Shown here one piece after another: positions 19,403-28,075 of a stretch of 64,000 nt of DNA. This DNA comes from Bacteroidia bacterium (GTDB taxonomy: Bacteria; Bacteroidota; Bacteroidia; NS11-12g; UBA9320): positions 128,001 to 192,000 of the forward strand of contig CBDCFW010000003.1 in NCBI GenBank assembly GCA_965216465.1, read 5' to 3'. The translations under genes and the position numbers were made by a program. A model generated the notes under the pieces. The model did not search any database. It saw only the letters and a list, made by a program, of their open reading frames with translations, and was not told the DNA's origin. Position 1 is the stretch's first letter. Each line of letters begins with the position of its first letter.

Positions 19403-19849
19403 TTATTGCTTCTCTACAAATTCTTTAAACTGTTTCATCCATTTCTCGCCTTGTTTGCGGTACATGCTTGGAAACAAAATTGCCATTAACCTTGGCATAA
19501 ACCAATTGATGCGCGTGTATTCAAACTCGTACTCGTAACGCGTATTGTTTTCATCGATTGGCACAAACTTGCAACGCATGAAATTATCCATGTGAATATG
19601 GTGGTATTCAGCATCGAATGATTCGGGTAGATTGTTGTTCAATATGGTTTCGGTGAGTTCTAGTTTACGCTTTCCATATTCGTAGTACATTTTTGCAACT
19701 GCTCCGGTTTGTGACACCTCACCACTCACATGGTCTTTACGAACAAAGCCATCTTGGTAGTTTCCTAAATATTGAGGATCGATAAAATACTTGACCACCT
19801 CTTCGCGGGGTTTAGCAATATCAACTGATCCGTTAAACTTCATATTCAT
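19403..19849 (-). CDS. SRPBCC family protein
   Basis: SVDIAKPREEVVKYF.DP N-terminus and C-terminal helix ending FKEFVE. Confidence 0.85.
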   Translation of the reverse strand: MNMKFNGSVDIAKPREEVVKYFIDPQYLGNYQDGFVRKDHVSGEVSQTGAVAKMYYEYGKRKLELTETILNNNLPESFDAEYHHIHMDNFMRCKFVPIDENNTRYEYEFEYTRINWFMPRLMAILFPSMYRKQGEKWMKQFKEFVEKQ

Positions 19850-19882
19850 GGGTTAACAAATATAGGGAAGAGATTAATAAAG

Positions 19883-20359
19883 CTATTTGCTCCACACACG
19901 AATAAGATTTTCAACATTTTCAGGAGTCAATTCATTAAATCTTTTTATGATTTGCAAGGCCTGAATTATAATCATCGCTGCTCTGCCTGTTTCATATTGA
20001 TAGGTCAAAGTGTTGCCATTGGCTAGCTTCAAAGTGGCATAGTCAATGACTTTGTTCGAGATACCCTTTACATCGCCGGCCTGCACAGATTCGTGTCCAT
20101 GAATATATCCTGATTTAAGAAGCCCATTTAACTTAGAAAATAATCTGCTGGTTGTAATTACTGTAAAGTTGTTTTGGTCCGTAAATACAGAACAAACTAC
20201 CAATTCGTCTTGCAAGTCAAGCTCAGTTAAGTCAAACGGGAAGTTATTTTTATCTTCATGAATTCTTGAATGCTTATAGGTGCCCATTTTTTCAGTTGCT
20301 CTCTTAATGCTGAGAATTGCAAGCTGGTGCAAGGACATTGTAGAGTGTTCTGTTTTCAT
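19883..20359 (-). CDS. Hypothetical protein
   Basis: 158-aa ORF, no recognised motif. Confidence 0.6.
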   Translation of the reverse strand: MKTEHSTMSLHQLAILSIKRATEKMGTYKHSRIHEDKNNFPFDLTELDLQDELVVCSVFTDQNNFTVITTSRLFSKLNGLLKSGYIHGHESVQAGDVKGISNKVIDYATLKLANGNTLTYQYETGRAAMIIIQALQIIKRFNELTPENVENLIRVWSK

Positions 20360-20414: not shown

Positions 20415-20692
20415 TTGGGATTGGCTTCAGTTTTCCATCGTTGTACCTGCTGAAAAAGTAAAGCTCCTATTAGTCTGCGACTGACCGCTTTTTTATATGA
20501 ATTCTAATTGAAAACGGATTACTTTCAGTGATCCGTCCTTATCCGTGTTGAAAAAGCAAAGCTCCTTCAGTCTGCGACTGTTCGCTTTTTTTTAGGTGTA
20601 TTCTAATTGAAAACGGATTACTTTCAGTGATCCATCCTTATCCGTGTTGAAAAAGCAAAGCTCCTTCAGTCTGCGACTGAATGCCTTTTTCA
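20415..20692 (-). repeat. tRNA-Arg-linked tandem array of 98-99 bp units
   Basis: TGAAAAAG(C/T)AAAGCTCC... recurs at 20451, 20549 and 20648; the tRNA-distal unit is degenerate. Confidence 0.92.
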
Positions 20693-20694
20693 CC

Positions 20695-20729
20695 CCATCT
20701 TAAACTGAAGCGAGCTTCGTTTAAGATGG
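20695..20729 (-). other. Conserved hairpin between tRNA-Arg terminator and array
   Basis: Minus strand CCATCTTAAAC GAAGC TC GCTTC A GTTTAAGATGG. Confidence 0.85.
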
Positions 20730-20732
20730 CAT

Positions 20733-20767
20733 AAAAAAAAGCTCTTCCAATACTTGGAAGAGCTTTT
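20733..20767 (-). terminator. Intrinsic terminator of tRNA-Arg
   Basis: AAAAGCTCTTCCAA-GTA-TTGGAAGAGCTTTTTTTT on the minus strand. Confidence 0.85.
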
Positions 20768-20778
20768 ACTTTTATTCG

Positions 20779-20852
20779 TGACCTCGTCAGGATTCAAACC
20801 TGAGACCTCTTGAGCCGTAATCAAGTGCTCTATTCAGCTGAGCTACGAGGCC
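20779..20852 (-). tRNA. tRNA-Arg(ACG)
   Basis: GGCCTCG...CTTGA TT ACG GC TCAAG...CAGGTTTGAATCCTG..CGAGGTCA cloverleaf; CCA not encoded. Confidence 0.95.
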
Positions 20853-27662: not shown

Positions 27663-27737
27663 GGTGGTTGTAGCTCAGTTGGTTAGAGCACTGGTTTGTG
27701 GTTCCAGGGGTCGTGGGTTCGAATCCCATCTTCCACC
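27663..27737 (+). tRNA. tRNA-His(GTG)
   Basis: G-1 plus GTGGTTG...CTGGT TT GTG GT TCCAG...GTGGGTTCGAATCCCAT CTTCCAC, C73 discriminator. Confidence 0.95.
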
Positions 27738-27742
27738 CAAAG

Positions 27743-27774
27743 AAAAAGGTCTCGCGGTAGCGAGGCCTTTTTTT
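27743..27774 (+). terminator. Intrinsic terminator of tRNA-His
   Basis: AAAAAGGTCTCGC-GGTA-GCGAGGCCTTTTTTT. Confidence 0.85.
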
Positions 27775-27780
27775 ATTCAA

Positions 27781-27813
27781 CCATTTTCTGCAAGCTCGCT
27801 TGCAAGAAAATGG
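27781..27813 (+). other. Conserved hairpin between tRNA-His terminator and array
   Basis: CCATTTTCT GCAAGC TC GCTTGC A AGAAAATGG. Confidence 0.85.
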
Positions 27814-27828
27814 GGAATAAAAAAATAA

Positions 27829-28075
27829 GCCTTGTAAAGGCTCCTTTTTCTTTGAAGGCCCAACAGAAGATATAGGGATAAACGCAGTTAATCCTTCTTT
27901 CGCAGTTCAATTAAATTGGGAAGGGTTGCCTTGTAAAGGCTCCTTTTTCTTTGAAGGCCCAACAGAAGATATAGGGATCAACGCAGTTAATCCTTCTTTG
28001 GTAGTTCAATTAAATTGGGAAGGGTTGCCTTGTAAAGGCTCCTTTTTCTTTTGCAGGTTGAATAGATGAAATCGT
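27829..28075 (+). repeat. tRNA-His-linked tandem array of 99 bp units
   Basis: GCCTTGTAAAGGCTCCTTTTTCTTT at 27829, 27928 and 28027; the first two units are nearly identical and the third decays. Confidence 0.93.

Follow-up and report, generated by a model that had tools for sequence, protein, structure and literature searches.

What is the 19-nt hairpin that recurs in two short tandem arrays of a Bacteroidia bacterium, and why does it lie behind two different tRNA genes? The arrays are found in a stretch of 64,000 nucleotides (positions 128,001 to 192,000 of contig CBDCFW010000003.1, assembly GCA_965216465.1; hereafter the window), one downstream of tRNA-Arg(ACG) and the other downstream of tRNA-His. 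An earlier reading of this DNA, made from the letters alone (the sequence-only reading), had suggested among other options a T-loop-derived recombination site. We consider it probable that this motif forms the hairpin at one end of a protein-less integrative element of ~150–190 bp that inserts into the 3′ ends of tRNA and transfer-messenger RNA (tmRNA) genes in Bacteroidota, and we read this element as a miniature, non-autonomous one. The observations underlying this reading are the position of the modules, the repeats that bracket them, their uniform size, their conserved helices, their presence and absence among relatives and the stacking of different copies at one gene.

The pattern GGWTMANNGNANNTAATCC has four matches in the window, at 20516–20534 and 20615–20633 on the minus strand and at 27876–27894 and 27975–27993 on the plus strand. 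Shuffled sequences lead one to expect 0.09 matches, and none of 100 shuffles reaches four. Across the whole genome of 3,231,698 bases, the paired version of the motif returns the same four window sites only, all of them in arrays just 3′ of tRNA-Arg(ACG) or tRNA-His. The closest Arg and His copies are identical at 14 of 19 positions, and the five differences amount to two compensatory pairs (C-G/U-A versus A-U/C-G) plus the central position of a G-N-A loop. All versions share the fold ((((.(((...))).)))), a hairpin of 4+3 bp in which a C/A mismatch is conserved, and the isolated 19-mers are of ordinary stability (z −1.0 to −2.5). The flanking CAACA, GATA and TTCAATTA are common to the Arg and His arrays. 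Pattern matching and the sequence itself bear out the sequence-only reading on the four positions, the identity, the compensatory pairs and the loop, and the sequence bears it out on the shared flanks; a degenerate third Arg copy, at 20418–20436, had been overlooked.

That reading had also called the arrays otherwise dissimilar, which is incorrect. In the orientation of the tRNA, both loci present the tRNA, an A-rich trailer X, a terminator with its T-run, a hairpin H0 tipped by AAGCTCGCTT, an A-run, the small hairpin hp′ (5 bp, G-N-A loop), a T-rich segment X′ complementary to X, the CAACA..GATA tract and the 19-nt hairpin ending in AATCC; after a short spacer, the next unit sets in with the A-run or with hp′. 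Because the parts follow the same order at both loci, the arrays are homologous along the whole unit and not merely over the 19-mer. The 19-nt hairpin is the right-hand end of this module, abutting a duplicated core that runs from the T-loop to the tRNA's 3′ end.

Inserts bracketed by tRNA-end repeats

We built a covariance model, R1, from 21 aligned units (alignment A1). In this genome, 26 of the 28 matches of the model (E ≤ 0.1) fall within seven arrays directly 3′ of tRNAs. Among 29 loci fetched from the order, a same-strand tRNA lies 70–310 nt upstream in 21. Of the remaining eight, two follow the 3′ end of a tmRNA (L082, L091) and four a tRNA 3′ end that is partial or undetected (L083, L085, L102, L103), while in two the contig ends within the array (L090, L095). 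Twelve further contexts contain 20 matches, 17 of them behind a tRNA called by ARAGORN and one behind a partial tRNA-Pro 3′ half; one (L119, at 8751) is without any tRNA upstream, and the match pair of L121 lies at a contig end. At least 18 tRNA species serve as targets, to which tmRNA, Glu-TTC and Leu-CAG are added. The enrichment 3′ of tRNAs raised by the sequence-only reading is therefore present, with model matches sitting behind tRNA or tmRNA genes and few exceptions.

In an intact copy, the tRNA continues to its 3′ end (core copy 1, from the T-loop AATCC) and is followed by a new trailer X, the terminator, the T-run, H0 and the A-run. The right part consists of hp′, X′, a C-rich tract and the GGA..hairpin..AATCC that leads into core copy 2, behind which come the original trailer and terminator. 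Since core copy 1 is followed by a new trailer and terminator, the insert rebuilds the end of the tRNA gene and supplies a replacement terminator.

An automatic screen of all the loci collected, for exact repeats around single inserts, yielded eight clean cases. These inserts measure 146–173 bp, have 64–73% of their bases paired and are bracketed by exact direct repeats of 16–21 bp, of which six start with AATCC, AATCT or AGTCC. No open reading frame (ORF), and with it no integrase gene, lies within the 146–173-bp inserts. The AATCC that closes the end hairpin proves, in relatives, to be the first five bases of the 16–21-bp repeat of the tRNA 3′ end, from T-loop position 58 onward. At a tmRNA (L082) and at L103, the 3′ end of the tmRNA or tRNA recurs behind the module, its second copy starting exactly at the equivalent of this AATCC. 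Near-perfect repeats occur in L031, L081, L082, L084 and L104, and L135 and L190 also show bracketing core repeats.

Different copies can stack at one gene. At tRNA-Pro(GGG) of a genus-mate (L084), two different complete modules and three tRNA core copies precede the native trailer and terminator; two different complete modules stand in tandem in the same arrangement at a tRNA-Pro(CGG) (L104), and tandem full elements with periods of 156–178 bp are present in L142, L171 and L153. The tRNA or tmRNA gene is intact with the insert at its 3′ end, as in the class of bacterial attachment sites (attB) located at the T-loop; the direct repeat that starts in the T-loop is present in relatives, and in the window only its AATCC survives. 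From the bracketing repeats, together with a trailer, a terminator and a matching X′ of its own, it follows that the module has been inserted, as a discrete piece, into the tRNA 3′ end. Insertion would occur by site-specific recombination within the 16–21-bp core and, because the inserts encode nothing, the enzyme would act in trans.

Of the options in the sequence-only reading, the evidence favours the T-loop-derived recombination site, which would be essentially right but too narrow. The part that stands is the link to a recombination core, as AATCC starts the 16–21-bp core repeat in relatives. The part that falls is the notion of a free-standing site: the hairpin is one of four helices of an element of ~150–190 bp, and the window repeats have decayed beyond AATCC. 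At three loci (L083, L085 and L117), we also observed partial copies of tRNA-Pro or tRNA-Val, beginning with the anticodon stem and each with a module behind it. These mark larger elements with a longer core that were inserted upstream, displacing the old 3′ half together with the mini-element.

The same repeats admit a different chemistry, the alternative that survives best, which we nevertheless think unlikely. Here they would be target-site duplications produced by staggered cuts at T-loop position 58 and at the discriminator base, made as by casposases or Cas1 or in a single-strand, structure-guided reaction, and the core would not be carried on the element. Casposons integrate at tRNA 3′ ends with duplications of 14–15 bp. 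Such a reaction would suit a family found behind at least 18 tRNA species plus tmRNA, with a repeat that always extends from the same structural landmark to the tRNA end and helices that point to a folded strand. It would also suit the Pro-TGG and Pro-GGG modules of this genome, which are 85% alike (and at most 61% alike to any module of another genome) at genes whose cores differ. Terminal inverted repeats, however, were not found in the eight clean inserts (3–11 of 30 positions versus shuffle means of 7–8.4 and maxima of 13–15), no Cas1-like gene was noticed, no search aimed at one having been made, and the extent of the repeat is the usual one for T-loop integrases, 16–21 bp being typical of tyrosine integrases that use this ‘sublocation’ of the tRNA gene in the classification of such sites. 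Modules also tend to group by tRNA type across genera, as with a short end hairpin at Arg-ACG in two genera, which is expected if the element carries its own core.

Conserved helices, distribution and the search for an enzyme

In six of the seven array loci of this genome, the predicted fold is a four-way junction in which X:X′ closes the terminator, the T-run:A-run helix with the H0 arm, and hp′, the end hairpin being separate. Whole modules of the window have fold z-scores of −8.4 and −8.7. When 92 units (90 distinct) are placed on R1, 86.5% of the cells are paired versus 67.7% in shuffles and at most 46.4% with the partner slid, this alignment having been fitted to the model, so that pairing is favoured. 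Changes on both sides are seen in 12 of the 13 pairs, and in an independent MAFFT alignment hp′ shows double changes in four of its five pairs. The covariation that had been noticed between the two window arrays is thus real in a larger alignment and extends to 90 distinct units. The complementarity of X to X′ is specific to each locus, with a diagonal mean of 10.7 versus 5.8 off the diagonal over 16 loci. In a set of 54 tRNA-adjacent modules selected by the pattern of their common H0 tip, 52 differ in the 8-mer just 5′ of that tip.

The hp′ loop is GCA, GTA or GAA in 48 of the 92 units, and G-T pairs exceed A-C mismatches in two sets (47:26 and 41:20). Together, the helices, the G-N-A and G-NN-A loops and the G-T excess suggest that the tRNA-sense strand is selected as a folded single strand, either DNA or RNA. 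A small RNA of the reverse strand with its own terminator was considered and set aside, since both the loops and the bias in wobble pairs point to the tRNA-sense strand; the minimum free energies of the two strands are mixed.

The family is widespread and patchy. Among 121 genomes of the order with a completeness of at least 90%, R1 has matches in 50, which represent both families and 17 of 23 genera; many of the matches stand in tandem, and many lie at contig ends. Within the genus, one of the 15 other genomes that are at least 90% complete has matches, and the tRNA-Pro(GGG) modules of the element-bearing genus-mate are, compared by eye, unrelated in sequence to those of this genome. The tRNA-His site is filled in one of 30 family loci, that of this genome, and in a relative with an identical tRNA-His the gene runs straight into the next one. 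Comparison of both arrays with 40 relatives by DNA similarity returned terminator-sized fragments only; the arrays are therefore not conserved as sequence. Two other tRNA-His loci have features of their own. In a genus-mate (G001, locus L059), the last ~55 nt of the gene, its trailer and its terminator are duplicated ~70 nt downstream without a module between; we read this as a plain scar of integration, again at tRNA-His. In G067 (L061), tandem repeats of ~15 nt (units with caatccttcc) lie behind the terminator.

Beyond the order, we searched a species-genome collection with a pattern for breadth, consisting of the T-run, the H0 tip and the A-run, which matches at least 115 stretches. Of the 80 matches listed, 41 lie 24–37 nt behind a same-strand tRNA in named Bacteroidota; three of the other 39 were inspected, two being chance matches in coding sequence and the third a 204-bp array in Bacteriovorax. 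Among the matches listed, the tRNA-adjacent ones belong to Flavobacteriaceae (Polaribacter filamentus, Aureicoccus marinus, Muriicola jejuensis, Flavobacterium species and Sungkyunkwania), Crocinitomicaceae, Cryomorphaceae, Fluviicola, Croceimicrobium, Candidatus Brachybacter and Pararhodonellum marinum, which we take to be a member of the Cytophagales. They further include Chitinophaga, metagenome-assembled genomes (MAGs) of Chitinophagaceae, one MAG labelled Sphingobacteriia, and MAGs labelled Bacteroidales, Rikenellaceae and Prolixibacteraceae. Cultured carriers include P. filamentus ATCC 700397, Flavobacterium saliperosum, M. jejuensis and P. marinum. In P. filamentus ATCC 700397 (L135), a unit of 168 bp lies at tRNA-Val with a perfect repeat of 17 bp. 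The Bacteriovorax locus (L170; Bacteriovorax sp. DB6_IX, NZ_AUNJ01000411.1, 301–1179) holds five tandem units of 204 bp, each combining a terminator and T-run with an A-run and a hairpin that bears the same AAGCTCGCTT tip. ARAGORN found no tRNA at this locus, and each unit repeats ~50 nt of adjacent sequence that by eye is the end of a coding region. The locus hints that the family may reach outside Bacteroidota and outside tRNA targets.

Helices as well conserved as these could also mean that the module is a structured RNA kept by the host, or a cis-acting tRNA 3′-end module, transcribed by read-through or from its own promoter. In that case, tRNA 3′ processing, termination or insulation would be the task of the four-way junction and the end hairpin, unless they served as small RNAs, and the arrays would raise the dose. 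We rate this as quite unlikely. The strong covariation, the G-N-A loops and the excess of G-U over A-C on the tRNA-sense strand speak for it, as do the hairpin flanked by an A-run and a T-rich stretch in every unit and the pairing of X′ with the pre-tRNA trailer and 0–4 bases of the tRNA end. However, repeats of the tRNA end bracket the modules, the orthologous sites of close relatives are without a module, and the distribution is patchy. The tRNA is separated from most of the module by a strong terminator, and no Bacteroidota-type promoter was seen by eye. In Rfam, no family matched: only tRNAs reach the gathering score in the window, and the seven array loci gave only sub-threshold chance matches (E ≤ 1). 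As the leading explanation, we dropped a host-encoded, tRNA-like four-way-junction RNA with X′ adapted to the local trailer because the trailer and terminator travel with the module, as they do in the Pro/Pro and Ser/Ser pairs of this genome, and because the bracketing repeats appeared. A host RNA is compatible with the integrative element if the mobile element is also transcribed.

No better placed is the view that the arrays are ordinary scars, leftovers of large integrase-bearing islands or prophages that were triplicated by slippage and whose hairpins are mere terminators: the tRNA genes of the order are indeed busy landing sites (the tRNA-His duplication of L059, a duplicated tRNA-Leu end in this genome), the partial tRNA 3′ halves from the anticodon stem mark larger elements and the window arrays have decayed repeats and no genes, but random decay predicts variable size and content whereas all eight clean inserts fall within 146–173 bp, the same succession of parts is seen behind at least 18 tRNA species and across several orders, its helices showing compensatory changes, the repeats enclose no gene fragment, and L084 and L104 hold two different complete modules in tandem.

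Several findings nonetheless weigh against an integrative element. Housekeeping genes adjoin both window arrays, and no element contains a recombinase or has one nearby. Four tyrosine recombinases (PF00589) are present in the genome, none beside an array; the two accessory ones among them were not found in the element-bearing genus-mate and were found in genus-mates without elements. Pfam searches of the ORFs beside the half-module of L119 gave HipA and CBM domains and no integrase. No autonomous parent was recovered, the tip pattern yielding a single chance match, in a coding region, among 2.9 million viral contigs, and excision, circles and transcripts were not observed in the material at hand, low-depth DNA contigs that break at the arrays. 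A double-stranded circle of 150–190 bp would be very stiff. The order-derived model matches only four of 150 other sampled genomes of the phylum at E ≤ 1e-4, so that the family is patchy or fast-evolving outside the order. The window sequence that follows AATCC is without the tRNA-end repeat, agreeing by hand count at ~2 of 12 bases for Arg and 3–6 of 12 for His, and the attachment-site (att) interpretation rests on the relatives and not on the window copies. Lastly, a classical double-stranded att site can do without covarying hairpins, and the structure is thus not accounted for by the integrase part of the model.

The four covarying helices would matter because the element would act as a folded single strand of tRNA sense. 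It is possible, if doubtful, that the modules are not scars but make up a living class of mobile DNA without proteins, in which the element's own folded single strand serves as the substrate of recombination and the recombinase comes from the host or from an unrelated element. X:X′ would then clamp the three-hairpin body to a ‘head’ that presents the T-loop core of the tRNA, as attC does to integron integrases, and the supplied recombinase would move elements into any tRNA or tmRNA gene.

Known systems and significance

Targeting of the T-loop by integrases is supported by mycobacteriophage Ms6 at tRNA-Ala (PMC1762012). The modules resemble integrative elements of tRNA genes in their insertion at the tRNA 3′ end, in a repeat that runs from the T-loop to that end, in the rebuilt gene end and in tandem accretion. 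They differ in that the insert measures 146–173 bp and carries neither integrase nor any other gene, in the conserved four-helix fold and in that no autonomous relative was found. Cis-mobilizable elements (CIMEs) are elements that have lost their integration and transfer genes and kept attL and attR (PMC5704250). Like CIMEs, the modules are gene-less, have att-like flanking repeats (in relatives) and stand in tandem with other inserts at the same tRNA; unlike CIMEs, which decay from a specific integrative and conjugative element (ICE) or integrative and mobilizable element (IME) at arbitrary size, they are uniform in size and share one architecture family-wide, across several orders. A derivation from an ICE or IME is not recognisable in the inserts, which hold no gene remnants, or among viral contigs, with their one chance match; ICE collections were not searched.

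Small non-autonomous repeats of other kinds include MITEs (miniature inverted-repeat transposable elements), REPINs, Correia elements, ERIC and REP/RAYT. With these repeats the modules share a small, non-coding, strongly folded, multi-copy and patchy character and, presumably, mobilisation in trans. The differences lie in the absence of terminal inverted repeats, in strict targeting of tRNA and tmRNA 3′ ends and in a gene-rebuilding target repeat of 16–21 bp. Integron attC sites are recombination partners in which structure rather than sequence is conserved. Structure conservation, strand-specific loop features and arrays of short units beside a fixed site recall them, whereas here a tRNA gene is targeted, terminators and a copy of that target form part of the units, and recombination of a single strand is only a hypothesis. 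As for an integron integrase (IntI) with its attI site, no PF00589 match lies near the arrays of this genome, IntI-specific features not having been tested. In the literature searched, which did not cover subscription journals, we found no description of such an element, and this family of miniature structured tRNA-gene insertions is apparently undescribed so far.

Integration into tRNA genes is textbook knowledge for islands and prophages that bring their own integrase; here, the insert is uniform, gene-less, folded and only 150–190 bp long. To our knowledge, it would be the smallest integrative element, one that rebuilds the gene end, brings a terminator, stacks and amplifies. Two questions arise, namely which enzyme moves the element and whether its substrate is double- or single-stranded, and because the carriers include culturable strains, both can be tested directly at the bench. 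If the single-strand reading were true, the elements would represent an undescribed kind of tRNA-targeted genetic passenger that is within reach in cultured Bacteroidota. There are practical consequences as well: the arrays break short-read assemblies at tRNA genes, where contigs stop; the elements replace native tRNA terminators; and the arrays can be mistaken for small-RNA genes or CRISPR-like repeats.

Arrays of the window and of the remaining genome

Both window arrays have a period of 99 bp according to Tandem Repeats Finder (TRF), with 2.6 copies at 20426–20680 and 2.3 copies at 27829–28051. The two tRNA genes diverge, tRNA-Arg on the minus and tRNA-His on the plus strand, so each array lies downstream of its own tRNA. 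On the minus strand, tRNA-Arg(ACG) occupies 20778–20852 (ARAGORN; Rfam tRNA, 59.8 bits), and the left-hand array lies behind it. Sequence and fold place trailer X at 20762–20777 and a hairpin of the rho-independent terminator type with its T-run at 20733–20767 (together 20733–20777), followed by the long hairpin H0 at 20692–20732 with its conserved tip at 20708–20717. Unit 1 (20615–20690; R1, 43.8 bits) contains the A-run, hp′ at 20667–20679 with a GCA loop, X′ at 20650–20664, the CAACA..GATA tract and the 19-nt hairpin at 20615–20633. In unit 2 (20516–20593; R1, 48.3 bits), hp′ lies at 20568–20580, X′ at 20551–20565 and the 19-nt hairpin at 20516–20534. The degenerate unit 3 (20418–20494; R1, 21.7 bits, E 0.005) retains hp′ at 20471–20483, and its end hairpin at 20418–20436 has diverged with the AATCC end kept.

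On the plus strand, tRNA-His(GTG) occupies 27664–27738 (ARAGORN; Rfam), with the right-hand array behind it. Trailer X (27739–27749) and the terminator hairpin with its T-run (27743–27774) span 27739–27774, and H0 extends over 27775–27818 with its tip at 27792–27801, again by sequence and fold. Unit 1 (27819–27894; R1, 27.9 bits) comprises the A-run, hp′ at 27829–27841 with a GTA loop, X′ at 27842–27854, CAACA..GATA at 27860–27875 and the 19-nt hairpin at 27876–27894. Unit 2 (27928–27993) belongs to the TRF array and is not reported by R1 at E ≤ 0.01; its hp′ lies at 27928–27940, X′ at 27941–27953 and the 19-nt hairpin at 27975–27993. Unit 3 (28027–28051; sequence and TRF) is truncated to hp′ at 28027–28039 and the start of X′.

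The window arrays are best seen as the amplified, decaying right-hand two thirds of two old insertions, this portion of the element having undergone tandem amplification with the 99-bp period. Because their core copies have decayed beyond AATCC, they are probably immobile, inert remnants. By our reading of the letters, the TTCAATTA spacer motif of the His array may be a collapsed H0 base. In three low-depth DNA runs, contigs break at the arrays, and one contig skips one 99-bp unit, which may be an assembly collapse. The Arg array is directly followed downstream by a pair of ORFs (148 and 158 aa; window 19403–20359, minus strand) that are without a Pfam match, and the ORF that follows this pair has a weak match to TfoX_N below the curated cut-off.

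Seven tRNA genes of this genome carry arrays by TRF and ARAGORN: Arg-ACG, His, Ser-TGA, Pro-TGG, Val-TAC, Ser-GGA and Pro-GGG. The five arrays outside the window have periods of 102–125 bp, a C-rich tract resembling CCACCCC and a longer end hairpin, GGA..CGACC-GNAG-GGGAGG.AATCC. The boundaries of the unit vary by array, falling inside the H0 tip, inside an H0 arm or after H0, which means that one and the same module was duplicated independently in the different arrays. In the tRNA-Val array (G000:C6:529505–530061), the poly-C tract varies from ~9 to 13 C between neighbouring copies, suggesting slippage.

Other tRNA loci of this genome are also unusual. Behind tRNA-Leu(CAA) (G000:C1:167601–168785), a direct copy of the gene's own 3′ end lies ~90 nt downstream and is followed by a coding-like 428-bp tandem repeat of 2.3 copies; the locus appears to be a different, classical att-type scar. 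At G000:C4:7301–7385 and C4:8521–8609, ARAGORN calls an 85-nt ‘tRNA-Asn’ with anticodon ATT beside a normal tRNA-Asn(GTT), and a weak covariance model match on the opposite strand (E 6.5e-4) overlaps the normal gene. A cluster of 17 tRNA genes within 1.65 kb (G000:C6:445784–447434), many of which repeat tRNAs encoded at other sites of the genome, may represent a tRNA array that is mobile. Finally, a 93-bp tandem repeat (3.3 copies, 93% matches) at G000:C5:395410–395713 is unrelated in sequence to the tRNA-linked modules and lies ~1.9 kb from a tRNA-Ile/tRNA-Ala pair, a combination that would be expected in an rRNA operon.

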